The notes under the pieces: model-generated | What the model was told of the DNA's origin: nothing | What the model saw: the letters and a program-made list of their open reading frames with translations, nothing else | The model's database searches: none | Shown here: positions 14,102-37,644 of the stretch, one piece after another | Position numbering within the stretch: the stretch's first letter is position 1 | Layout of the letters: each line of letters begins with the position of its first letter | From: Escherichia coli | GTDB taxonomy: Bacteria > Pseudomonadota > Gammaproteobacteria > Enterobacterales > Enterobacteriaceae | Assembly (NCBI RefSeq): GCF_003991155.1 | Contig: NZ_CP031293.1 | Direction: 5' to 3' (one strand) | DNA: 64,000 nt | Made by a program: the position numbers and the translations under genes

Positions 14102-14371
14102 ACGACTGATAACTCCCGATGATAATTAACAGGAGAGTAGATATTTTACGCATTAATTAATGTGATGATTGTCGCATTTGATAGCGCTATCTGATAACGC
14201 TACCAATCTTTGTGATAGCGCTATCATTTCTCTGCCGCCATGCTTTGGCTATATTCGGTTCCTGCATATACAATGCAACAGGATATTTGCTACCGTGGGC
14301 AAAAACTGGAAAGAGTAATGGTGAAATAAAAGTAATGAAAACAGCTGGTTGTAATTATCCATGGAGTCGAA

Positions 14372-16781: not shown

Positions 16782-17002
16782 CGCAAAATAGTCTGTGGGG
16801 GCCGGAGCATGACCGGTAACCGGAACAGGGTTTTGCCCTCGTCACAGCCAAAAATACGTCCTTTATCACATTTCTTCGATTTTTCCTGATATTTTACCGG
16901 GTTACTGTTCAAAAATGCTTCTCTTCTGATGTAAATTTCTTTACTGACACTTTTTGACATGAATTTACACTGGCATCACACAGGCCAGAATACGGGGAGA
17001 AC

Positions 17003-18775
17003 ATGCAGCACCGGCAGAAAAACATTCTGACGAAAACGTCCCTTTTATCCCGTGCGTTGTCTGTCCCCTGTTGTGATATGTTCCGGCGCGGCTCTCCGTG
17101 GATATGCTATCTCTCCCTCTCCGTTTTTTCTGGTTGTTTCATCCCCGCATTTTCGTCTCCGGCAGCCATGCTGTCTCCGGGTGACCGCAGTGCAATTCAG
17201 CAGCAACAGCAGCAGTTGCTGGATGAAAACCAGCGTCAGCGTGATGCGCTGGAGCGCAGTGCGCCGCTGACCATCACGCCGTCTCCGGAAACGTCTGCCG
17301 GTACTGAAGGTCCCTGCTTTACGGTGTCAAGCATTGTTGTCAGTGGGGCCACCCGACTGACGTCTGCAGAAACCGACAGACTGGTGGCACCGTGGGTGAA
17401 TCAGTGTCTGAATATCACGGGGCTGACCGCGGTCACGGATGCCGTGACGGACGGCTATATACGCCGGGGATATATCACCAGCCGGGCCTTTCTGACAGAG
17501 CAGGACCTTTCAGGGGGCGTACTGCACATAACGGTCATGGAAGGCAGGCTGCAGCAAATCCGGGCGGAAGGCGCTGACCTTCCTGCCCGCACCCTGAAGA
17601 TGGTTTTCCCGGGAATGGAGGGGAAGGTTCTGAACCTGCGGGATATTGAGCAGGGGATGGAGCAGATTAATCGTCTGCGTACGGAGCCGGTACAGATTGA
17701 AATATCGCCCGGTGACCGTGAGGGATGGTCGGTGGTGACACTGACGGCATTGCCGGAATGGCCTGTCACAGGGAGCGTGGGCATCGACAACAGCGGGCAG
17801 AAGAATACCGGTACGGGGCAGTTAAATGGTGTCCTTTCCTTTAATAATCCTCTGGGGCTGGCTGACAACTGGTTTGTCAGCGGGGGACGGAGCAGTGACT
17901 TTTCGGTGTCACATGATGCGAGGAATTTTGCCGCCGGTGTCAGTCTGCCGTATGGCTATACCCTGGTGGATTACACGTATTCATGGAGTGACTACCTCAG
18001 CACCATTGATAACCGGGGCTGGCGGTGGCGTTCCACGGGAGACCTGCAGACTCACCGGCTGGGACTGTCGCATGTCCTGTTCCGTAACGGGGACATGAAG
18101 ACAGCACTGACCGGAGGTCTGCAGCACCGCATTATTCACAATTATCTGGATGATGTTCTGCTTCAGGGCAGCAGCCGTAAACTCACTTCATTTTCTGTCG
18201 GGCTGAATCACACACACAAGTTTCTGGGTGGTGTCGGAACACTGAATCCGGTATTCACACGGGGGATGCCCTGGTTCGGCGCAGAAAGCGACCACGGGAA
18301 AAGGGGAGACCTGCCCGTAAATCAGTTCCGGAAATGGTCGGTGAGTGCCAGTTTTCAGCGCCCCGTCACGGACAGGGTGTGGTGGCTGACCAGCGCTTAT
18401 GCCCAGTGGTCACCGGACCGTCTTCATGGTGTGGAACAACTGAGCCTCGGGGGTGAGAGTTCAGTGCGTGGCTTTAAGGAGCAGTATATCTCCGGTAATA
18501 ACGGCGGTTATCTGCGGAATGAGCTGTCCTGGTCTCTGTTCTCCCTGCCATATGTGGGGACAGTCCGTGCAGTGACTGCACTGGACGGCGGCTGGCTGCA
18601 CTCTGACAGAGATGACCCGTACTCGTCCGGCACGCTGTGGGGTGCTGCTGCCGGGCTCAGCACCACCAGTGGTCATGTTTCCGGTTCGTTCACTGCCGGA
18701 CTGCCTCTGGTTTACCCGGACTGGCTTGCCCCTGACCATCTCACGGTTTACTGGCGCGTTGCCGTCGCGTTTTAA
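17003..18775 (+). CDS. cdiB: Two-partner secretion outer-membrane transporter (TpsB; ShlB/FhaC/HecB family)
   Basis: 590 aa with POTRA-containing TpsB character, GGGGAG ribosome-binding site, immediately upstream of a 3288-aa TpsA-type exoprotein with a VENN motif. Confidence 0.9.
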   Translation: MQHRQKNILTKTSLLSRALSVPCCDMFRRGSPWICYLSLSVFSGCFIPAFSSPAAMLSPGDRSAIQQQQQQLLDENQRQRDALERSAPLTITPSPETSAGTEGPCFTVSSIVVSGATRLTSAETDRLVAPWVNQCLNITGLTAVTDAVTDGYIRRGYITSRAFLTEQDLSGGVLHITVMEGRLQQIRAEGADLPARTLKMVFPGMEGKVLNLRDIEQGMEQINRLRTEPVQIEISPGDREGWSVVTLTALPEWPVTGSVGIDNSGQKNTGTGQLNGVLSFNNPLGLADNWFVSGGRSSDFSVSHDARNFAAGVSLPYGYTLVDYTYSWSDYLSTIDNRGWRWRSTGDLQTHRLGLSHVLFRNGDMKTALTGGLQHRIIHNYLDDVLLQGSSRKLTSFSVGLNHTHKFLGGVGTLNPVFTRGMPWFGAESDHGKRGDLPVNQFRKWSVSASFQRPVTDRVWWLTSAYAQWSPDRLHGVEQLSLGGESSVRGFKEQYISGNNGGYLRNELSWSLFSLPYVGTVRAVTALDGGWLHSDRDDPYSSGTLWGAAAGLSTTSGHVSGSFTAGLPLVYPDWLAPDHLTVYWRVAVAF

Positions 18776-18787
18776 GGGATTATTACC

Positions 18788-21700
18788 ATGCATCAGCCTC
18801 CCGTTCGCTTCACTTACCGCCTGCTGAGTTACCTTATCAGTACGATTATCGCCGGGCAGCCGTTGTTACCGGCTGTGGGGGCCGTCATCACCCCACAAAA
18901 CGGGGCTGGAATGGATAAAGCGGCAAATGGTGTGCCGGTCGTGAACATTGCCACGCCGAACGGGGCCGGGATTTCGCATAACCGGTTTACGGATTACAAC
19001 GTCGGGAAGGAAGGGCTGATTCTCAATAATGCCACCGGTAAGCTTAATCCGACGCAGCTTGGTGGACTGATACAGAATAACCCGAACCTGAAAGCGGGCG
19101 GGGAAGCGAAGGGTATCATCAACGAAGTGACCGGCGGTAAGCGCTCACTGCTGCAGGGCTATACGGAAGTGGCCGGCAAAGCGGCGAATGTGATGGTTGC
19201 CAACCCGTATGGTATCACCTGTGACGGCTGTGGTTTTATCAACACGCCGCACGCGACGCTCACCACAGGCAAACCTGTGATGAATGCCGACGGCAGCCTG
19301 CAGGCGCTGGAGGTGACTGAAGGCAGTATCACCATCAATGGCGCGGGCCTGGACGGCACCCGGAGCGATGCCGTATCCATTATTGCCCGTGCAACGGAAG
19401 TGAATGCCGCGCTTCATGCGAAGGATTTAACTGTCACTGCAGGCGCTAACCGGATAACTGCAGATGGTCGCGTCAGTGCCCTGAAGGGCGAAGGTGATGT
19501 GCCGAAAGTTGCCGTTGATACCGGCGCGCTCGGTGGAATGTACGCCAGGCGTATTCATCTGACCTCCACTGAAAGTGGTGTCGGGGTTAATCTGGGTAAC
19601 CTTTATGCCCGCGAGGGCGATATCACCCTGGATGCCAGCGGCAGACTGACTGTCAACAACAGTCTCGCCACGGGGGCCGTCACTGCAAAAGGTCAGGGCG
19701 TCACCTTAACCGGCGACCATAAAGCGGGAGGTAACCTGAGCGTCAGCAGCCGGAGCGATATCGTTCTCAGCAATGGAACGCTTAACAGCGACAAGGACCT
19801 CAGCCTGACCGCCGGCGGCAGAATCACTCAACAGAATGAAAAACTGACTGCCGGCCGGGATGTAACGCTTGCCGCGAAAAACATCACACAGGATACCGCC
19901 AGCCAGATTAACGCGGCCCGCGATATCGTGACTGTCGCCAGTGACACGCTGACAACACAGGGACAGATAACCGCCGGGCAGAATCTCACGGCCAGCGCCA
20001 CCACGCTGACACAGGACGGAATATTGCTGGCGAAAGGTCATGCGGGACTCGATGCCGGCACGCTGAATAACAGTGGTGCTGTTCAGGGGGCTTCCCTGAC
20101 GCTCGGCAGTACAACGCTCAGCAACAGTGGCTCCCTGCTCAGTGGCGGTCCCCTGACCGTGAATACCCGCGACTTTACCCAGAGCGGCCGCACTGGCGCG
20201 AAGGGCAAAGTGGATATCACGGCCAGTGGGAAACTGACCAGTACAGGTTCGCTGGTGAGCGATGATGTACTGGTGCTGAAGGCGCAGGATGTGACACAGA
20301 ACGGTGTGCTGTCCGGCGGCAAAGGGCTGACGGTCAGTGCGCAGGCGCTGAGCTCCGGTAAAAAATCGGTCACCCACAGCGATGCTGCGATGACGCTGAA
20401 TGTGACAACAGTGGCGCTGGACGGGGAAAACAGTGCCGGTGACACCCTCCGGGTTCAGGCAGACAAACTGAGTACCGCAGCGGGCGCACAGCTTCAGAGC
20501 GGTAAAAATCTCAGCATCAACGCCAGAGATGCACGTCTTGCAGGTACGCAGGCAGCACAACAGACCATGGCGGTGAACGCCAGTGAAAAGCTCACCCACA
20601 GCGGGAAAAGCAGCGCCCCGTCGCTCAGCCTCAGTGCGCCGGAACTGACCAGCAGCGGTGTGCTTGTTGGTTCCGCCCTGAATACACAGTCACAGACCCT
20701 GACCAACAGTGGTCTGTTGCAGGGGGAGGCCTCACTCACCGTTAACACACAGAGGCTTGATAATCAGCAGAACGGCACGCTGTACAGTGCTGCAGACCTG
20801 ACGCTGGATATACCGGACATCCGCAACAGCGGGCTTATCACCGGTGATAATGGTTTAACGTTAAACACTGCCTCCCTCAGCAATCCGGGAAAAATCATCG
20901 CTGACACGCTGAACGTCAGGGCGACCACGCTGGATGGTGATGGTCTGTTGCAGGGCGCCGGTGCACTGGCGCTTGCAGGCGACACCCTCTCACAGGGCCG
21001 TAACGGACGCTGGCTGACGGCGGGCGACCTCTCCCTCCGGGGTAAAACACTGCATACCGCAGGGACCACGCAGGGACAGAATCTCACCGTGCAGGCGGAC
21101 AGATGGGCGAACAGTGGTTCCGTGCTGGCAACCGGTAACCTTACTGCTTCGGCAACCGGTCAGTTGACCAGTACCGGCGATATCATGAGCCAGGGTGACA
21201 CCACGCTGAAAGCAGCCACCATGGACAACCGGGGCAGTCTGCTTTCGGCCGGCACGCTCTCCCTTGATGGAAACTCACTGGATAACAGCGGCACTGTCCA
21301 GGGTAACCATGTCACGATTCGCCAGAACAGTGTCACCAACAGTGGCACGCTCACCGGGATAGCCGCGCTGACGCTTGCCGCCCGTATGGCATCCCCTCAA
21401 CCTGCGCTGATGAATAACGGAGGTTCATTGCTGACCAGCGGCGATCTGACAATCACCGCAGGCAGTATTACCAGTTCCGGACACTGGCAGGGCAAACGGG
21501 TGCTGATCACCGCAGACAGTCTGGCAAACAGCGGGGCGATCCAGGCGGCTGACAGCCTGACTGCACGTCTGACGGGTGAGCTCGTCAGCACAGCGGGCAG
21601 CAAAGTCACCTCGAACGGTGAAATGGCGCTCAGTGCACTGAATTTAAGCAACAGCGGACAATGGATTGCAAAAAATCTGACCCTGAAGGCGAACTCACTG

Positions 21701-24700
21701 ACCAGTGCGGGTGACATCACCGGTGTGGATACTCTCACGCTCACGGTGAATCAGACGCTGAACAATCAGGCGAACGGAAAACTGCTCAGTGCAGGTGTGC
21801 TGACGCTGAAGGCAGACAGTGTCACAAACGACGGGCAATTACAGGGAAATGCCACCACCATCACGGCAGGACAACTCACAAACGGCGGGCATCTGCAGGG
21901 CGAAACGCTGACGCTGGCCGCCTCCGGTGGCGTGAACAACCGTTCCGGTGGTGTTCTGATGAGCCGGAATGCACTGAATGTCAGTACTGCGACCCTGAGT
22001 AACCAGGGCACGATACAGGGTGGTGGCGGGGTTTCCCTGAACGCCACAGACCGTCTGCAGAACGACGGCAAAATCCTTTCCGGCAGTAACCTCACGCTGA
22101 CGGCGCAGTTGCTGGCGAACACCGGCAGCGGACTGGTACAGGCTGCCACCCTGCTGCTGGATGTGGTGAATACTGTCAACGGCGGACGCGTACTTGCCAC
22201 CGGCAGTGCCGACGTTAAAGGAACCACGCTGAATAATACCGGTACGCTTCAGGGGGCGGACCTGCTGGTGAATTACCACACATTCAGCAACAGCGGTACC
22301 CTGCTGGGAACCTCCGGGCTTGGCGTCAAGGGCAGTTCACTGCTGCAAAATGGTACAGGGCGGCTGTACAGTGCAGGCAACCTGCTGCTTGACGCTCAGG
22401 ACTTCAGTGGTCAGGGGCAGGTGGTGGCCACCGGTGATGTCACACTGAAACTGATTGCTGCCCTCACGAATCATGGTACCCTGGCCGCAGGGAAAACCCT
22501 TTCCGTCACGTCGCAAAATGCCATCACCAACGGCGGTGTGATGCAGGGTGATGCCATGGTGCTCGGTGCCGGAGAGGCATTCACCAACAATGGAATGCTG
22601 ACTGCCGGTAAAGGCAACAGTGTTTTCAGCGCACAGCGTCTTTTCCTTAACGCACCGGGTTCACTTCAGGCCGGTGGCGATGTGAGTCTGAACAGCCGGA
22701 GTGATATCACCATCAGTGGTTTTACCGGCACGGCAGGCCGTCTGACAATGAATGTGGCCGGTACCCTGCTGAACAGTGCGCTGATTTATGCGGGGAATAA
22801 CCTGAAGCTGTTTACAGACCGTCTGCATAACCAGCATGGTGATATCCTGGCCGGCAACAGTCTGTGGGTACAGAAGGATGCTTCCGGCGGTGCAAACACA
22901 GAGATTATCAATACCTCCGGGAATATTGAGACGCATCAGGGCGATATTGTTGTAAGGACCGGGCATCTTCTGAACCAGCGGGAGGGATTTTCTGCCACAA
23001 CAACAACCCGGACTAACCCCTCATCCATTCAGGGAATGGGAAATGCTCTGGTTGATATTCCCCTTTCCCTTCTTCCTGACGGCAGCTATGGCTATTTCAC
23101 CCGTGAAGTTGAAAATCAGCACGGTACGCCCTGCAACGGGCACGGGGCATGCAATATCACAATGGATACGCTTTATTATTACGCTCCGTTTGCTGACAGT
23201 GCCACACAGCGCTTTCTCAGCAGCCAGAACATCACAACAGTAACCGGTGCTGATAATCCGGCAGGCCGCATTGCGTCAGGGCGTAATCTTTCTGCTGAGG
23301 CTGAACGACTGGAAAACCGGGCGTCATTTATCCTGGCGAATGGGGATATCGCACTTTCGGGCAGAGAGTTAAGCAATCAGAGCTGGCAGACGGGGACAGA
23401 GAATGAATATCTGGTATACCGCTACGACCCGAAAACGTTTTACGGTAGCTATGCCACAGGCTCTCTGGATAAACTGCCCCTGCTGTCACCGGAATTTGAA
23501 AACAATACCATCAGATTTTCACTGGATGGCCGGGAAAAAGATTACACGCCCGGTAAGACGTATTATTCCGTTATTCAGGCGGGCGGGGATGTTAAGACCC
23601 GTTTTACCAGCAGTATCAATAACGGAACAACCACTGCACATGCAGGTAGTGTCAGTCCGGTGGTCTCTGCACCGGTACTGAATACGTTAAGTCAGCAGAC
23701 CGGCGGAGACAGTCTGACACAGACAGCGCTGCAGCAGTATGAGCCGGTGGTGGTTGGCTCTCCGCAATGGCACGATGAACTGGCAGGTGCCCTGAAAAAT
23801 ATTGCCGGAGGTTCGCCACTGACCGGTCAGACCGGTATCAGTGATGACTGGCCACTGCCTTCCGGCAACAATGGATACCTGGTTCCGTCCACGGACCCGG
23901 ACAGTCCGTATCTGATTACGGTGAACCCGAAACTGGATGGTCTCGGACAGGTGGACAGCCATTTGTTTGCCGGACTGTATGAGCTTCTTGGAGCGAAACC
24001 GGGTCAGGCGCCACGTGAAACGGCTCCGTCGTATACCGATGAAAAACAGTTTCTGGGCTCATCGTATTTTCTTGACCGCCTCGGGCTGAAACCGGAAAAA
24101 GATTATCGTTTCCTGGGGGATGCGGTCTTTGATACCCGGTATGTCAGTAACGCGGTGCTGAGCCGGACGGGTTCACGTTATCTCAACGGACTGGGTTCAG
24201 ACACGGAACAGATGCGGTATCTGATGGATAACGCGGCCAGACAACAGAAAGGACTGGGATTAGAGTTTGGTGTGGCGCTGACAGCTGAACAGATTGCTCA
24301 GCTTGACGGCAGCATACTGTGGTGGGAGTCAGCCACCATCAACGGACAGACAGTCATGGTCCCGAAACTGTATCTGTCGCCGGAAGATATCACCCTGCAT
24401 AACGGCAGCGTTATCAGCGGGAACAACGTGCAACTTGCGGGCGGCAATATCACCAACAGCGGCGGCAGCATCAACGCACAGAACGACCTCTCGCTCGACA
24501 GTTCCGGCTATATCGACAACCTGAATGCGGGGCTGATAAGCGCGGGCGGTAGCCTGGACCTGAGCGCCATCGGGGATATCAGCAATATCAGCTCAGTCAT
24601 CAGCGGTAAAACCGTACAACTGGAAAGCGTGAGTGGCAACATCAGCAATATCACCCGGCGTCAGCAATGGAATGCGGGCAGTGACAGCCAATATGGTGGT

Positions 24701-27700
24701 GTGCATCTCAGCGGTACGGACACCGGTCCGGTTGCGACCATTAAAGGCACTGATTCACTTTCGCTGGATGCAGGGAAAAACATTGATATTACCGGGGCAA
24801 CGGTCTCGTCCGGTGGAGACCTTGGAATGTCTGCGGGTAATGATATCAACATTGCCGCAAACCTGATAAGTGGGAGCAAAAGTCAGTCCGGTTTCTGGCA
24901 CACTGATGACAACAGTTCATCATCCACCACCTCACAGGGCAGCAGCATCAGCGCCGGCGGTAACCTGGCGATGGCTGCAGGCCATAATCTGGATGTCACG
25001 GCATCCTCTGTTTCTGCCGGGCACAGCGCCCTGCTTTCTGCAGGTAACGACCTGAGTCTGAATGCAGTCAGGGAAAGCAAAAACAGTCGCAACGGCAGGT
25101 CAGAAAGTCATGAAAGCCACGCAGCTGTGTCCACGGTGACAGCGGGCGATAACTTCCTCCTTGTTGCCGGTCGTGATATTGCCAGTCAGGCTGCCGGTAT
25201 GGCTGCGGAAAATAACGTGGTCATCCGGGGCGGACGTGATGTGAACCTGGTGGCAGAGTCTGCCGGCGCAGGCGACAGCTATACGTCGAAGAAAAAGAAA
25301 GAGATTAACGAGACAGTCCGTCAGCAGGGAACGGAAATCGCCAGCGGTGGTGACACCACCGTCAACGCAGGACGGGATATCACCGCTGTTGCGTCATCCG
25401 TTACCGCAACCGGCAATATCAGCGTGAATGCCGGTCGTGATGTTGCCCTGACCACGGCGACAGAAAGTGACTATCACTATCTGGAAACGAAGAAAAAAAG
25501 CGGAGGTTTTCTCAGTAAGAAAACCACCCGCACCATCAGTGAGGACAGTGCCACCCGTGAAGCAGGCTCCCTGCTGTCGGGGAACCGCGTGACCGTTAAC
25601 GCCGGTGATAACCTGACGGTAGAGGGTTCGGATGTGGTGGCTGACCGGGATGTGTCACTGGCGGCGGGTAACCATGTTGATGTTCTTGCTGCCACCAGTA
25701 CAGATACGTCCTGGCGCTTTAAGGAAACGAAGAAATCCGGTCTGATGGGTACCGGCGGTATTGGTTTCACCATTGGCAGCAGTAAGACAACGCACGACCG
25801 GCGCGAGGCCGGGACAACGCAGAGTCAGAGTGCCAGCACCATCGGCTCCACTGCCGGTAATGTCAGTATTACCGCGGGCAAACAGGCTCATATCAGCGGT
25901 TCGGATGTGATTGCGAACCGGGATATCAGCATTACCGGTGACAGTGTGGTGGTTGACCCGGGGCATGACCGTCGTACTGTGGACGAAAAATTTGAGCAGA
26001 AGAAAAGCGGGCTGACGGTTGCCCTTTCCGGCACGGTGGGCAGTGCCATCAATAATGCGGTTACCAGTGCACAGGAGACGAAGGAGAGCAGTGACAGCCG
26101 TCTGAAAGCCCTGCAGGCCACAAAGACAGCGCTGTCTGGTGTGCAGGCCGGACAGGCTGCGACAATGGCCTCCGCAACCGGTGACCCGAATGCGATGGGA
26201 GTCAGCCTGTCGCTCACCACCCAGAAATCGAAATCACAACAACATTCTGAAAGTAACACAGTATCCGGCAGTACGCTGAATGCCGGGAATAATCTGTCTG
26301 TTGTCGCAACCGGTAAAAACAGGGGCGATAACCGCGGAGATATTGTGATTGCCGGAAGCCAGCTTAAGGCCGGTGGTAACACAAGCCTGGATGCCGCGAA
26401 TGATATTCTGTTGAGTGGCGCCGCAAACACACAAAAAACAACGGGCAGGAACAGCAGCAGTGGCGGTGGCGTGGGTGTCAGTATCGGTGCCGGTGGTAAC
26501 GGTGCCGGTATCAGCGTCTTTGCCGGCGTTAATGCGGCAAAAGGCAGCGAGAAAGGTAACGGTACTGAGTGGACTGAAACCACAACAGACAGCGGTAAAA
26601 CCGTCACCATCAACAGTGGTCGGGATACGGTACTGAACGGTGCTCAGGTCAACGGCAACAGGATTATCGCCGATGTGGGCCACGACCTGCTGATAAGCAG
26701 CCAGCAGGACACCAGTAAGTACGACAGTAAACAGACCAGCGTGGCTGCCGGCGGCAGTTTTACCTTTGGCTCCATGACCGGCTCAGGTTACATCGCTGCC
26801 TCCCGGGATAAGATGAAGAGCCGCTTTGACTCCGTTGCTGAACAAACCGGAATGTTTGCCGGTGATGGTGGCTTCGACATTACAGTGGGCAGACATACCC
26901 AACTGGATGGTGCGGTGATTGCCTCCACTGCCACACCGGATAAAAACCACCTGGATACCGGAACGCTGGGGTTCAGTGACCTTCACAACGAAGCGGATTA
27001 TAAAGTCAGTCACAGTGGAATCAGTCTGAGCGGTGGTGGCAGCTTCGGGGATAAATTTCAGGGTAACATGCCGGGTGGCATGATATCCGCCGGAGGTCAC
27101 AGCGGACATGCGGAAGGAACGACTCAGGCCGCAGTGGCAGAAGGCACTATCACCATCCGGGACAGGGACAATCAGAAGCAGAATCTGGCGAACCTGAGCC
27201 GTGACCCTGCGCACGCTAATGACAGTATCAGCCCGATATTTGACAAGGAGAAAGAGCAGAGGCGTCTGCAGACAGTGGGGCTTATCAGTGACATAGGCAG
27301 TCAGGTGGCGGATATTGCGCGTACACAGGGAGAACTGAATGCGTTGAAGGCCGCGAAGGAAGCAACCGGCGAAACACTTCCTGCTAATGCAACAGAGAAA
27401 CAACGTCAGGAATATCTTGCGAAACTGCGTGACACGCAGGCTTACAGGAATGAAATGGCGAAGTATGGTACCGGCAGTGAAATTCAGCGGGGTATCCAGG
27501 CCGCGACAGCCGCGCTTCAGGGACTGGCGGGTGGTAATTTAGCGGGTGCTCTGGCCGGAGCTTCTGCACCGGAACTGGCGCATCTGCTGAAATCAACAGA
27601 AAAAGACCCGGCAGTAAACGCCATTGCTCACGCCATTCTGGGCGGTACAGTAGCGGCAATGCAGGGTAATAATGTTGCTGCTGGTGCAGCAGGCGCAGCA

Positions 27701-28654
27701 ACGGGAGAGCTGGCAGCCAGAGCGATTGCCGGAATGCTGTATCCGGGAGTGAAGCAGTCAGACCTCAGTGAAGAGCAGAAGCAGACGATAAGTACGCTGG
27801 CAACTGTGTCAGCAGGGCTGGCCGGCGGTCTAACCGGAAACAGCACCGCATCAGCAGCAGTGGGAGCACAGAGCGGGAAGAATGCTGTTGAGAATAACTA
27901 CCTGAGCGTGTCTGAAAAGACAGAACTTGAGATAGCAAAACAGACGCTTAAAAACAGTAAAGATCCGGCAGAGCGTGAAAAGGCACAGCAGAAATATGAT
28001 GCATTGCTTGAAAAAGATATTGCCAGTGATAAGGAGGTTATTGCTGCCTGTAGTAATGGTAATGCGAGTAGTTCAGCGTGTGCCAGCGCAAGACTGAAAG
28101 TTATTGCGTCGAAAGAAGGGTACGAAGATGGCCCTTATAACTCGAAATACAGCCAGCAATACGCTGATGCGTATGGTCAGATAGTCAATCTCCTCGATAT
28201 CACCAGTGTTGATGCACAGAATCAGCAGCAGGTGAAAAACGCCATGATTAACTATTTCATGGTCACCAAAGGGGTGGATCGTCAGACCGCAGAAAGCTAC
28301 ACCGAAACAACGCAGGGCTTGGAGATCATTGCGGCTTCGGTAACGCCTCTTATAGGGCAAGCTGCATCAAATAAATTAAGCTACCTTGGTATTGGGAAAA
28401 AGATATCCTTTGATGGTGATTTTTATACTGTAGATGGAATGAAATTCAGCAAAAGTTATTATGAGAAATTATGGGAGCAAGGCAGACCTGCGCCATTCGT
28501 GCAAGCAAGAGAAGTGTTGAATAGCAATCCAAAAATTGAGCCGGATCCTAGAGGCGCACCTGGCTACTTAAGATATGAAGGTGCAGGTCTTGAAATGATC
28601 TATAACCCGAAAACGGGACAAGTTGGTCATATTCAACCAGTCAAGGTTAAATAA
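18788..28654 (+). CDS. cdiA: Contact-dependent growth inhibition exoprotein CdiA (3288 aa)
   Basis: N-terminal two-partner-secretion transport domain ([27 protein letters not shown]), long filamentous-haemagglutinin-type repeat tract, glycine-rich pre-toxin region and the VENN motif ([15 protein letters not shown]) about 255 aa from the C-terminus. Confidence 0.9.
27887..28654 (+). other. CdiA-CT toxin region (VENN to stop); enzymatic class unassigned
   Basis: VENN codons at 27887..27898, in frame with cdiA. The final domain (...[33 protein letters not shown]...GHIQPVKVK) matches no toxin I can name and does not end in GYGI. Confidence 0.7.
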
Positions 28655-28667
28655 AAAGAGGAAGTAA

Positions 28668-28988
28668 ATGGATATTTGGCCTGAATTTCAACGAGATCTT
28701 GAGATGTATCGAGATGTTGTTTTATCAATAAAACGTAACCTTCGGTTGTATGAGGAGTGTATTGAATCGTTAGTTCATCAGATCGGAAGCACCAATTTTG
28801 ATAATGCGCAGCCTCTATTTGATGACCTCTTTCGTATGCAATCTGAACTTGCTACTATGTTATACAAATATGAATATAAGCCAGGAAAAAGGATACAAGA
28901 TTTAATATATCATCTGGACAGGGATGATTTTTACTCAAGAAAATATTGGCATAAAAAATTCAGTGATGGATTGGCATGGCCTGAATAA
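28668..28988 (+). CDS. cdiI: Putative CdiI immunity protein cognate to the CdiA-CT
   Basis: 106-aa ORF starting 13 bp after the cdiA stop with an AGAGGAAG ribosome-binding site; visibly more AT-rich than cdiA, as expected for an exchangeable toxin/immunity cassette. The assignment is positional. Confidence 0.7.
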   Translation: MDIWPEFQRDLEMYRDVVLSIKRNLRLYEECIESLVHQIGSTNFDNAQPLFDDLFRMQSELATMLYKYEYKPGKRIQDLIYHLDRDDFYSRKYWHKKFSDGLAWPE

Positions 28989-29081
28989 TAGAAGTAGAAA
29001 TCCCGCCCTCAGTTAGCGCTGAGGAATCCCTAGTAATGGGCGGGTAAAAAAGACAGGCATAGAGTTTTGTGATCTACTGAT

Positions 29082-29642
29082 TTGTGCAACCAATTCAATG
29101 AGATCGCTTCTATGCCTGCTCGACAAGTATGTCAGAATTTTTTCCACGATGCGTTAGCACCGTTTCACAAATACCGACAAAATGCTTTGCTGGATGCCAC
29201 CATCGCTCTCATCAATGGCGCATCACTGACGTTGACCAGCATCGGGCGTTATTTACCCGGCTTGGCTCGGGTCAAAAATAAAATCAAACGCGTTGACCGA
29301 CTGCTCGGTAATGAATCTCTTCACCGCGATATCCCACTGATTTTCAATAATATTATTGCCATGCTGACTAGCCAGCTATCTCTTTGTGTCATCGCCGTTG
29401 ACTGGAGTGGATATTCATCTCAGGAGCATCATGTGCTCCGCGCCAGCCTGCTCTGCGATGGATGCTCGCTTCCCCTGTTAAGCTGGGTAGTCCCGTCAGA
29501 AAAACAGCAGAACTCGCAGATACAAAAAAACTTCCCAGATGCCCTTGCCGAGGCTGTAAACCCTGTGGCCAGAGTCATAATAGTTACCGATGCGGGTGTT
29601 CTTACCCCCTTATTTCCAGACAGGGGCTGTATCTTAAGTTAA
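29082..29642 (+). pseudogene. IS4-family (IS10-like) transposase, N-terminal fragment only
   Basis: RVKNKIKRVDRLLGNESLH ... VIAVDWSG ... VLRASLLCDG ... IIVTDAGV parallels the IS10 transposase N-terminus (KHNIKRIDRLLGN ... IVLVDWSD ... LRASVALHGR ... IVSDAGF). The frame ends after 186 aa where an IS3-family fragment begins. Confidence 0.6.
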
Positions 29643-29760
29643 CATTACCCGCTGACGTCGATATTCTCGCGGAGAGCGATAACCCAACGCACTATGCGGA
29701 TGGTTTTCATTGTAATGCTCGATCGCCACTGCAAGGTTTATATTGCCTGTTCATCGATCA
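29637..29760 (-). mobile_element. IS3-family transposase (OrfB) C-terminal fragment
   Basis: The minus strand encodes ...[35 protein letters not shown], the conserved C-terminal signature of IS3-family integrase-core transposases. Upstream frames are broken by stops. Confidence 0.55.
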
Positions 29761-30219
29761 TCAATCTCGTGAACTGTGAGACGAAACAGCGTACACTGTT
29801 TGAACGTATCTACTTTTCCCAATACTGGGCGAAGGGAGATGTTATTGCGAAGCGCGCTCCAATTAGTCAGTGGGAACCTTATTCGGAAGAGTCACTGCTT
29901 GTCATCATCGTCACCAGCGTCTGTCGTATTAAAGTCGCGATGCTAAAACCTGAACCTCCCAGAGATCCCCATATCCCGCTAATGGGGGATTTTAACTAAA
30001 ACTTAGCGCTATCGCTGCATATTGTAACTATCCCGCATCACGTATGCATAAATTATGACGCCATACGGGGAACAAATACACAGAGGAAGAAAAAGATTAG
30101 ATTGGTTTTAAGGGATTTTTTATCATAAATGGCGCTGCTAAAATTATGAGATTATCGAAGATAAAATTCTTGATCATACATAAAAGGCCTCCTGAATTAA
30201 ATCAAGAGGCGTATAGTTT

Positions 30220-31338
30220 TTATATTACTGATGTATGTTTAATGATCTCACTGATTTTCACTTTCCTGTCCTGCGATCTTGAAAGAGTGGCAGCATCAGC
30301 AGTAGCAATCGCCGACATGGCCGCCTCACCATTGAGAAGGTCAATATAATCTTCTTCAGGTTTTGCACCACTGAGGATATTATGGAGGAATAACGTCTCC
30401 TTTCTTATTAAACTGGCAAGCCATAATGGTGTTTTTTTTCCAGGATGACCATATGCTATAGCGCCATCCATTTCTGAGGTCATATTGCCTTTCCGACGAT
30501 CATCATCTTCTTCTTGTGTTTCATGGACCAAAAAATGCTTTGTCTGACCGCCAATCCTAAGTGACCCTGCTGTTTCTTGCATATCAATTTTAATAGAGCC
30601 TTTAGTTCCATTGATGATGACATAATGTTCTGGCCAGTTAAATGCACTCCCCCACTCTAAGGTTGCTAGTTTTCCTGACGGGAATTCCAAGGTCATAAAT
30701 AACATATCATCTTCATTGCCAAACCCTAGACCAGAATGAGCTAAATTTCCACCAATCATAGTAACCGTCTCTGGTATTTCTCCAAGTAAATGCTGAACAC
30801 AATCTAACTCATGTATATGATGATATAGATGTCCACCAGATTGTTCTTTCATCTTTTTCCAGGAAAGTCTCTCCTGTTTGTTTTCCCAGCCATTTCTCTT
30901 GGTATGACATGATAATATTTCGCCGATAACACCTTCTTTAATTAACTTCCGTGCATATTGAACTCCATTGAAAAAATTCATAATATGCCCAGCCATAAAG
31001 GTCACACCAGCTTCTTTACACGCTTTGACCATATCCACACAATCTTCATAACTTAATGCAATTGGTTTTTCACAAAAAACATGCTTCTTATTCTTTGCTG
31101 CTTTAATTACTGGATCTTTATGCAGATAATTTGGGGTGGCTACGATCACACAATCGACTAATTTACTTGAAACTAAAGCATCCAAGCTTGACATATTGAT
31201 ACATTGCAATTCACGGGCAATAGTTTCTCCATTTTCAGGATCGTATACACATGTAATTTTTGCATTATCATGCATATTCATAAAACGAGCTAATTCAGCG
31301 CCAAAGTATCCAACACCAACAACGCCATAATTAATCAT
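30220..31338 (-). CDS. yjhC: Gfo/Idh/MocA-family NAD(P)-dependent oxidoreductase, YjhC (NanY)-like
   Basis: 372 aa with N-terminal Rossmann motif (GVVGVGYFG); GGAGG ribosome-binding site; immediately downstream of a 405-aa NanT-like MFS gene. Both lengths match my recollection of YjhB/YjhC. Confidence 0.7.
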   Translation of the reverse strand: MINYGVVGVGYFGAELARFMNMHDNAKITCVYDPENGETIARELQCINMSSLDALVSSKLVDCVIVATPNYLHKDPVIKAAKNKKHVFCEKPIALSYEDCVDMVKACKEAGVTFMAGHIMNFFNGVQYARKLIKEGVIGEILSCHTKRNGWENKQERLSWKKMKEQSGGHLYHHIHELDCVQHLLGEIPETVTMIGGNLAHSGLGFGNEDDMLFMTLEFPSGKLATLEWGSAFNWPEHYVIINGTKGSIKIDMQETAGSLRIGGQTKHFLVHETQEEDDDRRKGNMTSEMDGAIAYGHPGKKTPLWLASLIRKETLFLHNILSGAKPEEDYIDLLNGEAAMSAIATADAATLSRSQDRKVKISEIIKHTSVI

Positions 31339-31349
31339 AAAGCCTCCAA

Positions 31350-32567
31350 TTATTTAGCCACGGATAGTTTATAAATTTTACCTGGAATATCAAAACCAAC
31401 TAACAAAATTAATAAGGCAGAGAATGCAACCGTAACAATGAATAATGAAACACCTAAGCCATAATATCTAGAAATGTATGTAGCTAATACAGGTGCGGCC
31501 ATTCCTCCAGTTGCCCCTAAGTTATAAATAAGACCGGTCCCTAATCCTCTTAATTTTGTTGGAAAGTAATCATATATAAATTTTGGAACCAACCCTGCAA
31601 TACCTAAATTTGTAAACATTAATCCAAAGAGACATAATCCTATAAGAAAAGAGTTTTTCACAGAAATAAAAAAAAGAGGACAAAGGAAAATAAATGAAGT
31701 TATTAGACCAACTACAAATGTTTTTTTTACACCAATCTTATCACCAACAAAACCAAAAAATATTGTACCTGTCAGTGTACCTAAACCTGCTATTGTCATC
31801 AGAGTTGAAATAACCACTGTATTAACTCCATTATCTGCTAGGTAGGAAGGAAGTAGTCCGTTTATCGGCCAGTTTGCACCAAATAGACAAAAACAGACGA
31901 GGAAAACGATCATAGAGATTGAAAGATGTGGTTTTCTGAAGACAGACAAAAATGTTGATTTATCCTTATATTTATCTTCAATCCACTCCTGACTTTCTGG
32001 AGCACTTTTTCTGATCCAAAGAACTAGTAAAACTGGTAACAGGCCTATAAAAAAAGAGTTTCTCCATCCATATACTTCAGCAAACTGAGGGATTATTTGT
32101 GCCGCAATAATATTTCCAACAGAAAAACCACTTACCAAAAAAGCACTAGCTTTAGATTGAAGATTTTTAGGCCAACTTTCTACTGCATAAGTTGAAGCAC
32201 ATGCATATTCACCAGACATCCCTAAGCCAACAATAAAACGGCAAACTGCGAGCATATATAAGTTTGTAGCAATACCGCTAAGGCCTGTTCCGACTGAGTA
32301 AATGATAATTGCCCACATCATCATTGGCTTACGCCCATATTTATCAGCCATGGCACCAAAAAAACCGCCCCCAATAGGTCTGGCTATGAAGGCCACTGTC
32401 CCTATTAAAGTGGCCTGAATATCCGTAATGCCAAGATCTGCTTTTATAATATGAAGAATGTAAAATATCATCATAAAATCAAAGCCATCAAATACATATC
32501 CAAGCCATGCAGAAAAAAGAGCTTTCCGTTGTGGTGGATTAACTTGTTTATACCATACTGTTGCCAT
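31350..32567 (-). CDS. yjhB: MFS transporter of the sialic acid (NanT) family, YjhB (NanX)-like
   Basis: Start placed at ATG 32567 (MATVWYKQ...) with an AGGAAA ribosome-binding site, giving 405 aa. Major-facilitator-superfamily signature; a NanR-type operator lies upstream. Confidence 0.7.
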   Translation of the reverse strand: MATVWYKQVNPPQRKALFSAWLGYVFDGFDFMMIFYILHIIKADLGITDIQATLIGTVAFIARPIGGGFFGAMADKYGRKPMMMWAIIIYSVGTGLSGIATNLYMLAVCRFIVGLGMSGEYACASTYAVESWPKNLQSKASAFLVSGFSVGNIIAAQIIPQFAEVYGWRNSFFIGLLPVLLVLWIRKSAPESQEWIEDKYKDKSTFLSVFRKPHLSISMIVFLVCFCLFGANWPINGLLPSYLADNGVNTVVISTLMTIAGLGTLTGTIFFGFVGDKIGVKKTFVVGLITSFIFLCPLFFISVKNSFLIGLCLFGLMFTNLGIAGLVPKFIYDYFPTKLRGLGTGLIYNLGATGGMAAPVLATYISRYYGLGVSLFIVTVAFSALLILLVGFDIPGKIYKLSVAK

Positions 32568-32976
32568 ATTTGTTTCCTGTGTTATTCTAATACAGCCCTT
32601 AAAGTAAATATTAGGGAGCCTCAACAATATCCAGCAATAATTATATTGTCTTCAAATACGCCAGTACTATTAATTGTTATCAATACCTAATCAGTACAAT
32701 CTTTTTCTCCATTTCTTCTTAACATATTTCACGCTATGAAAGATAAAACTGATACCCACCTTCAGTTTTGGGTCACCATCAAAAAAAATGTTCGCCAGAT
32801 ATTCCACCACTGGCACAGTTCAACCCTGCTTCAAAAATTGACTTATTCATTGTGCTCATTTTCGTAGTCCGTTCAGGTTGAATAAAACTCCCTTAGTCAA
32901 ATGAGGAAAGACTGAGAGGTTATTACTTTAGCTTACGTTATAGCTGTTTTCCTTTGCAGTATTTCTTTGCTTTTCT

Positions 32977-33000
32977 GTATACCTTTATACCTGTTATACC
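32977..33000. promoter_or_regulatory. NanR-type operator: three GGTATA hexamers (minus strand reads GGTATAACAGGTATAAAGGTATAC)
   Basis: Read directly from the sequence, about 410 bp upstream of the yjhB-like start. The tri-repeat GGTATA arrangement is the known NanR binding architecture. Confidence 0.5.
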
Positions 33001-33597
33001 AGATCAAAAAACAAGCAATCCACATAACAAAACGCGTTTTGTTACTGATGTCACAAATTGAGCATATTTTTGTATCTGATAGTTTGTTACAAACACCACA
33101 ACCAAGATGCCTATTTCGTTTCAGCATCAACTGTTAAATTATCTGGTTGCCAACGAGAATACTGAGCTTTTTTGTCCCTAAGACTGACCGTCAACGCAAC
33201 AATCTTTGACTGTTTGACATTGTCATGCCCGCAGGCCAGCGGATCTAAAGACATCAGACTGCTTGCATCAGCCAGTTGCGTATCTGGCTATGTCCCTTAA
33301 TTGGTAAGGGTTCGAGGAACTCAACATTAACGCATTTTTCAGCGCATCACCGACAGTGTATATGAACGATTGCACTCTGACGATGGTTGATTTATTTGGT
33401 TGCATAGGGGCTAGCTAGTCTGGTACCGGAGGCTGGATCTGAAGTACTGACCCTAGGAATAACGCCGGGCTGACTCATATTCTGACCCATTGTCAGCCCG
33501 CGTGTTTACTGCTCTAGCTCATTTCCTGTTGTCAGGCATTCAATTCCCAACTGCAGGTTATGGCCCGGTGAGCGAACACCTGACGGCAGGTATCACT

Positions 33598-33775
33598 CAC
33601 CCGGAGAAGGTAAATCCCTCAAGGGGCAGCAACTCTGCCAGTCGCTCCTCCGGCCACTCCGGCAGACGTGTCAGGACGTCTGTCAGCCAGGCATGTGGCT
33701 CCAGACCGTTGCGTTTCGCGGTTTCCAGCAAGCTCATTATTTGCGCAGCGCGTTCTCCCGCCATACGACAGCCGT
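33598..33775 (-). mobile_element. IS66-family transposase (TnpC) C-terminal fragment
   Basis: The minus strand encodes ...GERAAQIMSLLETAKRNGLEPHAWLTDVLTRLPEWPEERLAELLPLEGFTFSG*, paralleling the C-terminus of the intact IS66 TnpC in this window (...[40 protein letters not shown]...). Confidence 0.5.
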
Positions 33776-33797
33776 CAGAGCAGTGCGTCAGCGGGCG

Positions 33798-35642
33798 GCA
33801 GTTTTACCTGGGGTGCTGGCAGAGGTGGTTATGGCAGCGCCAGCCGCGATAATATCCACAGCAACTATGATTCCGTTAATGAGCAGAGCGGTATTTTCGC
33901 AGGCCGGGGTTATTTTGATATCACTGTGGGGAATCACACTCAGCTCGATGGTGCGGTGATTGCTTCGACAGCACCTGCCGACAGGAACTCGCTGGACACC
34001 GGTACTCTGGGCTGGTCGGATATCCATAACCAGGCAGACTATAAAGCCAGCTATACCGGAATCAGTTTATCGGGTGGCTCAGGGATGTCAGCCAGCCAGA
34101 TGGTGGCCTCAAATGCAATAGCCGGTGCGGCGAACGCACTTACCGGTATGTCCGGCAGCAGTGGACATGCTGAAGGTACCACGTCATCCGCCATCAGCGG
34201 CGGAAATCTCATTATCCGTGATAAGGAGAGTCAGAAGCAGGATATTGCCGGGCTCAGCCGGGACCCGGAAAACGCCAACGGCAGCATTGCACCGATATTT
34301 GACAAGGAGAAAGAACAGAAGCGTCTGCAGGAAGCGCAGGTTATCAGCCAGATTAGCGGTCAGATGAGTAATATCGTAATGACGTATGGCGAAACTGAAG
34401 CGATGAAAGCAGCCTGGAAAGAGCATCCTGGCATGAGCGATGCACAGTTGCGGGAGACTCCGGAATACAGAGAGGTCATGAAAGGCTACGGTACGGGCAG
34501 TTCGCCGCAGATGGTGGTACAGGCCATCACGGGCGTGCTGGGCGGACTGAATGCAGGGAACCCGGGGCAGGTATTGGCGGGCGGTCTGAATCCGGCAGTG
34601 GCACAGCTTATAAAACAGTCCACCGGCGATAACCGGGAAGCAAACCTGATGGCTCACGCAGTCTGGGGTGCACTTGCCGCACAACTGGGCGGAAACAATG
34701 CGGCTTCCGGTGCTGCTGGGGCATTCAGTGGTGAACTTGCAGCCTGGTATATCATTGATAACTACTACGGTGGTCGTACCGATAACCTGAGTGAACAGGA
34801 ACGTCAGCAAATCAGCATGCTGGCCACCATTGCCTCTGGTATTGCGGGGGGACTTGCAGGCAACAGTACGGCGTCTGCCGGTACGGGTGCACAGGCAGGA
34901 ACTCGGCTGAAAACAATATGCTGAACGTGATAGCCACTGAAACAGCAGCTAATACGGCAGCAGCAATAGCTGGTGCTACAGGTAATGCCAGTAAGGATAC
35001 CGGGAATGATAATAGCTGGGATACCGGTGGTGTTACGCTGGCTACGGGAACAGTGTGCTGTACGTGATCCGAGTCGCGATGGCACCCGAGGACCGGGGCA
35101 TGTGCTGAATGGCGACAATACAGACGGAAACAAACAGCCGAATCTGGGCAAAGACGTAGCGAGCGCAACGGATAAGGATAAAGCTGAGCTTGGTGGTGCA
35201 GGTGCTGGAATACCGGGGGGGATGGGGACCGGATAATGAAGAAAAAGCCCGTCATCAGGAGGTTCAGCAACAACGATTTGATGAACTGAGTAAAATATAT
35301 GATAAAAGTCACCCGGCCGGAGAGTTAACGGTGGATGGGCAGACTATCAGGCAGAGTTCGGTAAGTAACCGTTATGGTACGACGAAAGTGTTTGAAAGCC
35401 AGACTTTGACGGATAAACAGATCCACAATTACGCACAGCAACTGGCAGGCGATACACCGCTGAAAGAGGTAAAATCGGGAATCTACACGTCTAAACTATC
35501 AGATGGTTCGGTAATAACACTTAGAAACATATCTACATCAGAAGGTCAGACAGGCGCTCGTTGGACTATAGATATTCGTAATAACCAAAAGCTTACTGAA
35601 CTGGGGAATAAATATTCACGTGTGGAGATTAAGTTCAAATGA
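33798..35642 (+). pseudogene. Orphan cdiA-CT module 1: displaced 3' fragment of a cdiA gene with frameshifts
   Basis: DNA and protein homology to the pre-toxin region of the main cdiA begins at about 33798 ([51 protein letters not shown]). The VENN-equivalent (AENN, 34906..34917) lies in a different frame from the upstream ORF, and the toxin part is split over at least three frames. Confidence 0.6.
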
Positions 35643-35995
35643 TTACTGAGTTAAGTGAAAGAGAATACAAGGAGTTGACAGACGCTGCAGAGGGACAGAC
35701 TCTTGATGCTATTTTGTGTTATTCAGTTCCTGATATTCACCCTGCAGAGTTTAGTTTTGCAGATAGAAGAGAAATCTTTTTTTGGGCATTAACCCGTCTT
35801 CTGAAAGAAGGGCGTATCAAACTCGCCAAGCACGGTAAGTTTTTGGAAGGAAGTGTTGACGAGCAGGTTGAGCGTTTTCGACAGGCATTTCCGAAAACAG
35901 AAGAAGAGATGGAAGACGGTATCTGGTTTTTTGATGAGAGTTGTCCGGGGGGGGCTGTTTGGGTGCTTGAAGATGGCTCTCTCGAATGGACCTGA
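35639..35995 (+). CDS. Putative orphan CdiI immunity protein (module 1)
   Basis: Intact 118-aa ORF whose ATG overlaps the stop of the orphan toxin frame (ATGA overlap), the arrangement typical of toxin/immunity pairs. Acidic small protein; no family recognised. Confidence 0.55.
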
Positions 35996-37112
35996 TAACC
36001 CCTTCACAGCGCAGGATGCGGCGCAGCGAGCGTATAACAACGATATGGCGGCCTCAGTTTTTGGTACCGGAGGGAACGATACAGGCTACAACGGCAGCGG
36101 TACAGGGACTGGCCGGCGGTAATCTGAGTGCAGCCCTGGCAGGTGGTGCAGCACCGTATCTGGCCGAAGTGGTGAAAACCATGACCACAGACCCGGTTAC
36201 CGGTGAGGTGAATAAGGCTGCAAATGTGGCTGCTCATGCCGTGGTGAATGCCGCACTGGCTGTGGCACAGGGAAATAACGCTCTTGCCGGTGCTGTAGGT
36301 GCAGCCACCGGCGAGGTGGTGGGAATGATAGCCACACAGATGTACGGTAAGCCGGTGAGTGAACTGAGCGAGACAGAGAAGCAGACGGTCTCGACACTGG
36401 CAACGGTTGCTGCTGGCCTGGCCGGTGGTCTGGTGGGCGACTCGGGGCTTCAGCGGTAGCCGGCGCACAGTCAGGTAAGACGACTGTTGAGAATAATTTA
36501 CTTGGCGGTAGTGAAGATGCTCAGGCTGCGTGGATACGCCAGCATGGTATCGACATGGCAACATGTGCAGAAAACCCTTCTGGTGCCGCCTGCCAGAAAG
36601 CAATGAATGAGAGGGATGCTGTAGGGCTGGCTCTGGCAACAGGTACAGTGGCACTACTCCCCGGTAGTGCTCAGGCTGTGTGGGGACTGGGAGCAAGTGC
36701 GAATGCTGGTATCAGTTATCTGGCTGATGGTACTGTAGATCCGACAAACGCAGCCATTGCAGGCTGGGTGAATGTGTTCAGCATGGGTAATGGCCTGGCG
36801 GGGACTGTGGGCTGGAATGCGGCAGGTGGTGCGCTGGGTAACTGGATTGACAACAAAGATCCTCTGTCTGGTGCAATTTCAAATGGTATCGGTTCTGCTG
36901 CCGGGTATGGTATCGGTAAAGGTATTACTTGGGGGACAGATAATATTACGAATGCTGTAGGAAAATGGGTGACAAATGGCTGGGATCCTAAGTACGATCC
37001 AACATGGATAAAATATGCTGAAGTAAATCGTAACGATATCATTCGAGAAGGCATGAAACCGAGCAATGTTCTTGGAACTGCTGGAGATATTGGCGGTTCT
37101 ATAGGATCCTAG
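35996..37112 (+). pseudogene. Orphan cdiA-CT module 2: cdiA 3' fragment with a frameshift; glycine-rich predicted membrane-active C-terminal domain; no immunity gene follows
   Basis: Homology to the main cdiA pre-toxin region ([28 protein letters not shown] ... [20 protein letters not shown]) runs up to a VENN motif (TTVENNLLGG) reached only after a frameshift near 36455. The C-terminal roughly 185 aa are Gly/Ala-rich with GxxxG-like spacing. Confidence 0.5.
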
Positions 37113-37162
37113 CTAGGTGGAAAAGTAACTTAGTCTGCAAGGATCAGGAGTTACAGACGGCA

Positions 37163-37348
37163 TTGGCTTTACGCTTACCGTTTTTTTACGCGCCAGAACA
37201 AGACTATGATAGCGTTGCCCTTATAGACGATCACATTATCGTCCACTCCGACTTTGCGCAACTACTGTAGAGTGGTGTACTCCGCGGCTTCTTTGAGGAT
37301 CTCAACTTCCATGTTTTTTTACCCAGCAAGGGCTGTAACTCTTTTATT
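37163..37348. repeat. About 180-bp segment, copy B of the direct repeat (copy A at 11205..11383)
   Basis: See copy A. Here it overlaps the 3' end of the minus-strand OrfA-like gene 37231..37644. Confidence 0.6.
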
Positions 37349-37644
37349 TTTATAGCGGCAGCCAGTTCTGAGGCAGGAACAACATCCTCTCCGGTAGTAA
37401 CAGCAGCGAGACTTCCTTCCAGGTATTGTTTTTTCCACTTAAACAACAGACTGGGCTGAATACCATGCAAATGCGCCACATGGGACACCCTCATGCCAGG
37501 CTCCGTTGTCTGCTGAATAATGGCAATTTTTTCCTGAGGAGTTTTACGTTTACGAAGCTCCTGCCCCAGCAAAGTTCCAGTTATCTCAAAATTAGAACTA
37601 GTGTTAGACATATATCCAAGCCTATCTCTTATTTTAAGATACAT
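37231..37644 (-). mobile_element. IS3/IS66-type helix-turn-helix transposase accessory gene (OrfA-like), probably remnant
   Basis: HTH_Tnp-type region ([44 protein letters not shown]). A run of seven A (GGTAAAAAAACATGG) near the 3' end resembles a -1 frameshift slippery site, but the -1 frame ([16 protein letters not shown]) stops after 16 codons, so no transposase catalytic ORF follows. Confidence 0.5.

Follow-up and report, generated by a model that had tools for sequence, protein, structure and literature searches.

The CDI locus and the orphan module

We analyzed a window of 64,000 nucleotides (nt) of Escherichia coli DNA that contains a complete contact-dependent growth inhibition (CDI) locus and, ~4.8 kb downstream of it, an orphan module: the 3' end of a second cdiA gene followed by an immunity gene (cdiI) of its own. 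(All coordinates are positions in this window, and reading frames are given as codon start modulo 3.) The complete locus consists of cdiB (17003-18775), cdiA (18788-28654, 3288 codons), and cdiI (28668-28988), whose product is CdiI-NC101 (PDB 5I4Q chain B, E = 1e-71). The orphan module is not contiguous with this cdiBAI cluster; its parts are listed in Table 1. Homology to cdiA begins at ~33761-33764, directly against the minus-strand remnant of a transposase gene, and not at 33798, where a first-pass annotation of this DNA had placed the start of the fragment. The pre-toxin fragment has no plausible start codon and contains neither a secretion part nor a filamentous hemagglutinin part.

Table 1. 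Features of the orphan module and its borders (window coordinates)
Feature	Position	Strand	Remarks
Transposase-domain pseudogene remnant	33597-33773	-	Borders the orphan on its 5' side; annotated by RefSeq in the identical region of NC101 (17898-18074)
5'-truncated cdiA pre-toxin fragment	33764-34904	+	Open in frame 2; collinear with M3 cdiA (BLAST, alignment)
Lesion 1, loss of one CAGG unit (4-nt deletion after 34891)	34888-34899	+	Just upstream of the VENN equivalent; frame 2 to frame 1
AENN, the VENN-equivalent motif, start of the variable CdiA-CT	34906-34917	+	Now out of frame with the pre-toxin part
N-terminal CT remnant, putative cytoplasm-entry part	34918-35221	+	Bears lesions 2 and 3
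C-terminal toxin domain (putative)	35222-35642	+	Open, part of the open reading frame 35190-35642
Orphan cdiI, 118 codons, DUF596 / Imm-NMB0513	35639-35995	+	ATG overlaps the toxin stop (ATGA)
Next orphan fragment, start	35996-36336	+	Still collinear with the sequence 3' of M3 cdiI

Frame 2 (codon starts = 2 mod 3) is open from the edge of the transposase remnant to a stop codon at 34922-34924. The module continues with NSAENNML and ~55 more codons in another frame (up to a stop at 35065-35067), then with ~60 codons that are back in the first frame (up to a stop at 35234-35236), and finally with a stretch of 141 residues in the third frame that ends at 35642. Compared to the intact allele of strain M3, which is described below, the frame order across the module is 2>1>0>2>0, with four indels at three sites. 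The first-pass annotation had counted at least three frame changes in the toxin part, followed by an uninterrupted immunity gene of 118 codons with an ATGA overlap, and both statements hold.

Lesion 1 separates the pre-toxin part from the AENN motif. (AENN is also the form of the motif in M3, where GRNSAENNML reads in one frame.) Lesion 2 is compound: two 1-nt deletions, after 35031 and after 35043, lie 12 nt apart and are accompanied by four substitutions within five bases (35035, 35036, 35038, and 35039). It destroys the first cysteine of GGCEGSREQC, which belongs to a conserved CxxxxxxC pair, and even in the repaired translation GGCEGS becomes GGYAGS. For lesion 2 (35031-35044), we found neither a donor copy in the window nor an inverted repeat. 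Lesion 3 is an extra G in the run at 35215-35221 (G6 to G7). If the four indels (five bases) are repaired in silico, a single open frame of 628 codons results (33761-35642), its translation matches PT-VENN (PF04829, E = 7e-16), and the repaired module contains no nonsense codons. RefSeq annotates the equivalent of 33764-35642 in ECONIH2 as one frameshifted VENN pre-toxin pseudogene and also annotates the DUF596 gene. We refer to the N-terminal part of the C-terminal (CT) region as the entry part because, in the CDI literature (PMC9424206), this part of other CdiA-CTs mediates entry into the cytoplasm.

An armed counterpart in strain M3

The first-pass annotation had suggested a search for a full-length cdiA that ends in this CT, and such a gene exists in strain M3. 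The M3 cdiA (9510 nt, 3169 amino acids) ends in the orphan's CT, and a DUF596 gene follows whose start overlaps the stop in the same way (ATGA). Orphan and M3 are identical at 141/141 residues of the toxin domain (residues 107-247 of the M3 CT, tblastn) and at 117/118 residues of cdiI. A near-identical CT (at least 99.9%) is annotated as cdiA in M1, M8, SMBL, RSHH22, and SK6988; the M3 gene was inspected in full and these other five are taken from annotation. Thus, the matching toxin appears to be deployed by other E. coli. Two bovine strains hold the same CT/cdiI pair as an intact orphan. (The Prokaryotic Genome Annotation Pipeline (PGAP) names the M3 gene a "tRNA nuclease", but this name refers to a model of the CdiA backbone and not to the orphan's CT.)

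Five of the six armed genomes are from mouse (M1, M3, M8, RSHH22, and SK6988; M1 and M3 may be near-clones), and the carriers of the orphan from the mouse gut, which have only the antidote, include NC101, NGF-1, and PG20180057. The mouse-gut strains therefore offer a testable pairing of armed and antidote-only strains. Because both kinds of strain are found in mice, cross-immunity would be ecologically relevant.

Probable displacement of a resident cdiA tail

The comparison to M3 also suggests where the module came from. The window is 98% identical to M3 across cdiB and the 5' part of cdiA (16924-22932, which includes the first ~4.1 kb of cdiA). Over the middle of the window's cdiA and its 3' part, identity to M3 is only 73-86% (73% for 25005-27307). 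The tail of the M3 gene is instead matched by the orphan: a single BLAST alignment joins window 33764-36336 to M3 11882-14456 at 93.5% identity and runs, collinearly, through the M3 cdiA tail, the M3 cdiI, and the start of the next M3 orphan. From ~34005 onward, the pre-toxin part of the orphan is ~98% identical to M3 cdiA. Given this collinearity, we take the orphan to be the tail of the resident gene, displaced by a cdiA/cdiI of the NC101 type. As 35996-36336 is also collinear with M3, the block must have been inherited as one unit.

The first-pass annotation had described a displaced 3' cdiA fragment whose pre-toxin region is homologous to that of the main gene. The displacement agrees with the collinearity. 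The homology to the main gene does exist, but it is remote: the orphan shares 64% nucleotide identity with the window's own cdiA over ~600 nt, and for the last ~530 nt before the VENN motif we could not detect any match to the window's own cdiA. In short, the module is best read as what was left of a resident M3-type cdiA after displacement, namely its 3' end and, with it, the cognate immunity gene of the DUF596 family.

We propose the following history, which is the simplest one that would give this collinearity and which follows the published displacement model (PMC3150448, PMC9086364). First, an ancestor would have had an M3-like cdiBAI locus. Second, recombination inside the 5' part of cdiA that both types share would have brought in a foreign block: the middle of an NC101-type cdiA and its 3' part, the cdiI of that gene, insertion sequence (IS) fragments, and nanXY. 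Third, the old cdiA tail and its cdiI would have been stranded ~5 kb downstream, cut off from the secretion signals and the start codon. In this lineage, the tail, once stranded, gained the four indels and the small cluster of substitutions, all of them within 325 bp (34891-35215), whereas the toxin domain and cdiI changed little or not at all. The orphaned period was short: on the window's branch, the pre-toxin part has 13 synonymous and 5 non-synonymous changes, and such an excess of synonymous changes implies that most of the divergence arose under selection, before the gene was orphaned.

The frameshifts are real and derived

An obvious concern, which the first-pass annotation had raised for homopolymers at the frameshift sites, is that the frameshifts are sequencing or assembly errors in a toxin that is in fact intact. 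A G homopolymer (35215-35221) does contain one of the four lesions. The other three lie outside of homopolymers, however, and one of them is accompanied by four adjacent substitutions. Furthermore, in a search of 5426 genomes with a 2301-nt region, 55 genomes, which come from many laboratories, matched it at 99% identity or better, and among the matches listed, 19 complete E. coli genomes were 100% identical. (61 genomes retain at least 80% of the region.) All four lesions are present in the five further carriers that we aligned (NC101, ECONIH2, 317, A24, and PSUO2). With the same lesions in so many independently sequenced genomes, we consider it almost certain that they are not errors. The carriers were isolated from people, mice, dogs, poultry, marsupials, and other sources.

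For comparison, we used five other alleles, namely the full-length M3 gene and the orphans of OkiPb01692, BH100, ZYB62, and an O157:H7 strain. All five are uninterrupted at every indel site, so the state in the window is derived. As there is not a single nonsense mutation after repair, the decay is shallow. Also, the ~55 carriers share one inherited ancestral allele and therefore count as one observation.

The G6 tract at the junction of the entry part and the toxin domain was hit independently in another lineage: it is G7 in the window's lineage, G5 in ZYB62 (at ~3340), and G6 in the four other alleles (M3, OkiPb01692, BH100, and the O157:H7 orphan). It is apparently a site of repeated frameshifting, a hot spot at which the toxin domain becomes uncoupled from the part that delivers it.

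The toxin arm

With no start codon, no secretion domain, four frame breaks, and the loss of a conserved cysteine, the toxin arm can be neither made nor delivered. The label "decayed toxin" in the first-pass annotation is accurate for this arm as a whole, which is unreadable, but not for the toxin domain itself, which is open and identical to that of M3 at all 141 residues. Only the VENN junction and the entry part are damaged.

Could the module be a reserve weapon, a toxin cassette kept in store so that recombination onto the main cdiA would change the type of toxin? This model was proposed for orphan modules, and an engineered fusion in EC93 showed that it is possible (PMC3150448). The perfect toxin domain would suit such a role. 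Nevertheless, we consider it very unlikely for this module, because four frame breaks stand between the VENN motif and the toxin domain, because the cysteine of the CxxxxxxC pair is gone, and because a homology arm that is only 64% identical, and undetectable over its last ~530 nt, makes RecA-mediated swapping implausible. As the tail is both this diverged from the main cdiA and frame-broken, it would not be re-armable by homologous recombination, and we view it as a dead weapon.

A second possibility is joint retention of the toxin domain and cdiI as a unit, either because the toxin domain is translated from an internal start and forms a pair similar to a toxin-antitoxin addiction system with cdiI, or because the DNA of the toxin domain drives the expression of cdiI. 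The placement of the indels hints at this: they fall within 325 bp, a clustering with P = 0.01-0.06 for a span this small or smaller, and they spare both cdiI and the toxin domain (0/141 amino-acid changes). Also, PGAP calls the 150-codon frame at 35190-35642 a gene (WP_000250900.1), which overlaps the start of cdiI, and in sister modules the end of the toxin domain that adjoins cdiI usually survives. However, the 150-codon frame has no ATG, so that an internal TTG or GTG would be needed, and there is only a weak AAGGA ~11 nt upstream of the TTG. Truncation and displacement from the 5' side can explain why the 3' end was spared. Finally, strain C311 keeps cdiI despite two nonsense codons in its toxin, and ECL27829 keeps it despite having almost no toxin. 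A joint function of this kind seems improbable to us, if somewhat less so than a reserve weapon; if it were true, the addiction pair would stabilize the island.

Is the immunity gene retained for protection?

If the orphan cdiI is transcribed, we infer that its product would neutralize the M3-type toxin from neighboring E. coli and would thus give the NC101-like lineage cross-immunity, the role usually proposed for orphan immunity genes. The immunity protein would bind the identical toxin domain that M3-type neighbors deliver and would block it. Retention of cdiI for protection is plausible and fits the literature. Taken as a whole, we think that the module is probably a displaced M3-type tail whose weapon is dead and whose cdiI may be cross-protective.

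The main alternative is that the whole module, including cdiI, is unexpressed DNA that drifts neutrally, and that cdiI is intact only because the module became an orphan recently and the target is small. We consider this to be less likely than the reading above. The first-pass annotation had taken the intact cdiI beside a broken toxin as the pattern that is expected if immunity is retained, and this argument goes too far: when 3-4 indel events are placed at random, cdiI escapes untouched with P = 0.5-0.6 if they can fall anywhere in the 2232-bp module and with P = 0.2-0.3 if they can fall only in the CT and cdiI. As an intact cdiI would be expected by chance 20-60% of the time (P = 0.2-0.6), selection is not shown by this locus. 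Similarly, the functionless 1.1-kb pre-toxin fragment (~380 codons) and the toxin domain are just as open as cdiI is, and the repaired module lacks nonsense codons, so an open frame is no sign of selection here. An intact cdiI is therefore a pattern that does not discriminate between retained immunity and neutral drift. The synonymous-rich divergence, which leaves little time since inactivation, is also what a drifting relic would show.

Several other observations weigh against retention for protection. Promoter-like sites for the module are at the level expected by chance (5 found versus 5.4 expected), and between the module and cdiBAI lie IS remnants and two genes on the opposite strand. Relative to the cdiI that accompanies the armed toxin, the orphan cdiI has one amino-acid change, A14T. 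Within the lineage, polymorphisms are few and evenly spread (three in the pre-toxin part, three in the entry part, one in the toxin domain, and one in cdiI). The last of these belongs to PSUO2 and shifts the frame: a run of G8 (window 35947-35954) is reduced to G7, and the gene is annotated as frameshifted (at ~2556). Either the gene is truly lost in this strain or its assembly has a miscalled homopolymer. In the sister module of ZYB62, which has a frameshift at the same G run as the window's lesion 3 and a nonsense codon, an IS256 has removed cdiI. Lastly, the adjacent orphan has kept its toxin open reading frame without a cdiI: its CT is open, and in the sequence 3' of it (37113-37600) we found no immunity open reading frame but only a minus-strand remnant of a transposase gene, so within this same locus a toxin open reading frame has survived the loss of its cdiI.

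On the other hand, some evidence is not what we would expect from neutral drift. cdiI has the densest slippage-prone runs in the module (T7, T6, and a G6 that is now G8), yet it is intact in nearly all of the carriers, and it is the single G6 run of the entry domain that was hit. (In the window's lineage, a synonymous A-to-G change lengthened the G6 run in cdiI to the G8 at 35947-35954.) There are also sister modules with a cdiI that is 72-77% identical to the window's, and their toxins were broken by independent routes. In C311, two nonsense codons interrupt the toxin domain at its start; in NS-NP030, an IS3 lies between the entry and toxin domains; in UTME-9, the toxin lacks its 5' part; and in ECL27829, only the last ~39 residues of the toxin are left. 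In all four of these independent lineages, the DUF596 gene is intact, and ZYB62 is the sole counter-example among the sister modules that we sampled. Because our query included cdiI, this sample is biased towards loci that keep cdiI. With that caveat, the sister modules lend modest support to the view that immunity outlives the weapon. Finally, strains that are armed with exactly this toxin belong to the same species and live in the same type of host (the mouse gut).

Toxin domain and immunity protein families

The orphan cdiI (RefSeq WP_000627272.1) matches the full length of the Pfam model DUF596 (PF04591, model positions 1-69, E = 2.8e-17), and its residues 37-117 match a Neisseria protein of solved structure (PDB 2O5H, E = 6e-4). 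This family is listed as Imm-NMB0513 together with two toxins, Ntox20 and Ntox7, that are delivered by type V secretion systems (T5SS) in beta- and gamma-proteobacteria (Zhang et al., 2012, PMC3482391). As in those systems, the orphan cdiI lies directly after a polymorphic toxin of the T5SS-delivered kind. Unlike the listed partners, the orphan's toxin does not match any Pfam family.

Indeed, the toxin domain had no match among Pfam, NCBIfam, or PDB sequences. It is predicted by AlphaFold2 (pLDDT 89) to have ~8 strands plus helices, and the model did not match the fold of any solved structure. In particular, we did not find the likeness to barnase, EndoU, colicin E5-D, or RelE (BECR fold) that would indicate an RNase. 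Among the predicted structures in AFDB50, there were 98 fold matches, and all of these are C-termini of CdiA or hemagglutinin proteins or are uncharacterized proteins. By sequence, the homologues are CdiA tails or short fragments from Escherichia, Salmonella, Yersinia, Photorhabdus, Klebsiella, Xylella, and other genera, and most of the database matches are short, orphan-like fragments. Overall, the family is common at the C-termini of CdiA and hemagglutinin proteins in Enterobacterales, Xylella, Cupriavidus, and Stenotrophomonas. Twenty residues, including R102, R114, and W115, are invariant among 19 homologues.

Ntox20 is described as a mostly-beta toxin with a conserved arginine that is linked to T5SS/FilH and has Imm-NMB0513 as its partner (Zhang et al., 2012). 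By this description, the orphan's toxin domain may be Ntox20: its invariant R102 and R114, the ~8 strands plus helices of the model, the T5SS setting, and the DUF596 partner would all be compatible with it. As the domain is common and yet has no known activity or fold relative, it may be worth characterizing.

Comparison to known systems

The module belongs to a known class, the orphan cdiA-CT/cdiI modules (Poole et al., 2011, PMC3150448), and is an ordinary feature of CDI loci. It has a truncated 3' cdiA fragment, a VENN-type motif, an immunity open reading frame downstream, and a cdiBAI cluster upstream, and the same CT/cdiI pair ends a full-length cdiA elsewhere (in M3). The orphans of EC93 (o1) and EC869 (o1-o11) are likewise 5'-truncated cdiA genes that have a VENN-type motif and no start, that are followed by a small immunity gene, and that lie downstream of cdiBAI and beside IS remnants; there too, the same CT/cdiI pair was found on a full-length cdiA in another strain (PMC3150448). 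That orphan cdiI genes form an immunity repertoire has already been proposed in the same study. There are also differences. The EC93 and EC869 orphans that were tested were functional (PMC3150448), whereas the toxin arm of our module has four breaks in its frame. The EC93 orphan is co-transcribed with cdiBAI (PMC3150448), whereas here ~4.8 kb, including two opposite-strand genes, lie between. And in contrast to those orphans, our module has a homology arm that, at 64% identity, would be too divergent for a swap.

Two other systems are more distant parallels. Stenotrophomonas maltophilia Sm6 has DUF596 immunity genes, for CdiA-CTs of unassigned function, without a matching full-length toxin in its genome (PMC11893273), and S. 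maltophilia proteins were also among the fold matches of the toxin domain in AFDB50, although this is a different genus. In type VI secretion systems (T6SS), orphan immunity genes of Vibrio cholerae (PMC5361080) and the acquired interbacterial defense (AID) clusters of Bacteroides (bioRxiv 10.1101/471110) similarly involve a resident effector/immunity pair that is displaced by an incoming one (sequentially so in V. cholerae) and whose old immunity gene is kept as protection from strains that have retained the old effector. These arrays use another secretion system and other protein families, and unlike here, protection was shown experimentally.

What is specific to this module is the combination of a broken delivery part, a perfect toxin domain, clear signs of displacement from an M3-type gene, and a toxin family with no characterized relative. 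It does not change the current understanding of CDI. It does offer a clean natural example of CDI turnover, in which a tail is displaced, the delivery end decays first, and the antidote gene persists.

The intervening DNA and the neighboring orphan

The DNA between the main cdiI and the orphan (29000-33773) contains IS4 and integrase fragments, a small open reading frame of the "surface-adhesin E family", nanY, nanX, ~1 kb of unannotated DNA, and the transposase remnant. nanY and nanX (30220-32627, minus strand) encode a hydratase and a transporter for sialic-acid derivatives. The block seems to have come in with the tail of the NC101-type cdiA.

The next orphan (35996-37112) has the opposite pattern from the module described above. 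Its pre-toxin fragment has two frame changes and a VENN motif at 36486-36497, and its CT is open up to 37112, glycine-rich, and without a Pfam match.

In the stretch of M3 that we examined, we did not find the NC101 cdiI. Orphan fragments in M3 (15249-15454 and 16382-16632) are 94.7% and 84.9% identical to the VENN/CT part of the window's main cdiA (27693-28126). Thus, both types of locus hold relics of each other's toxins.

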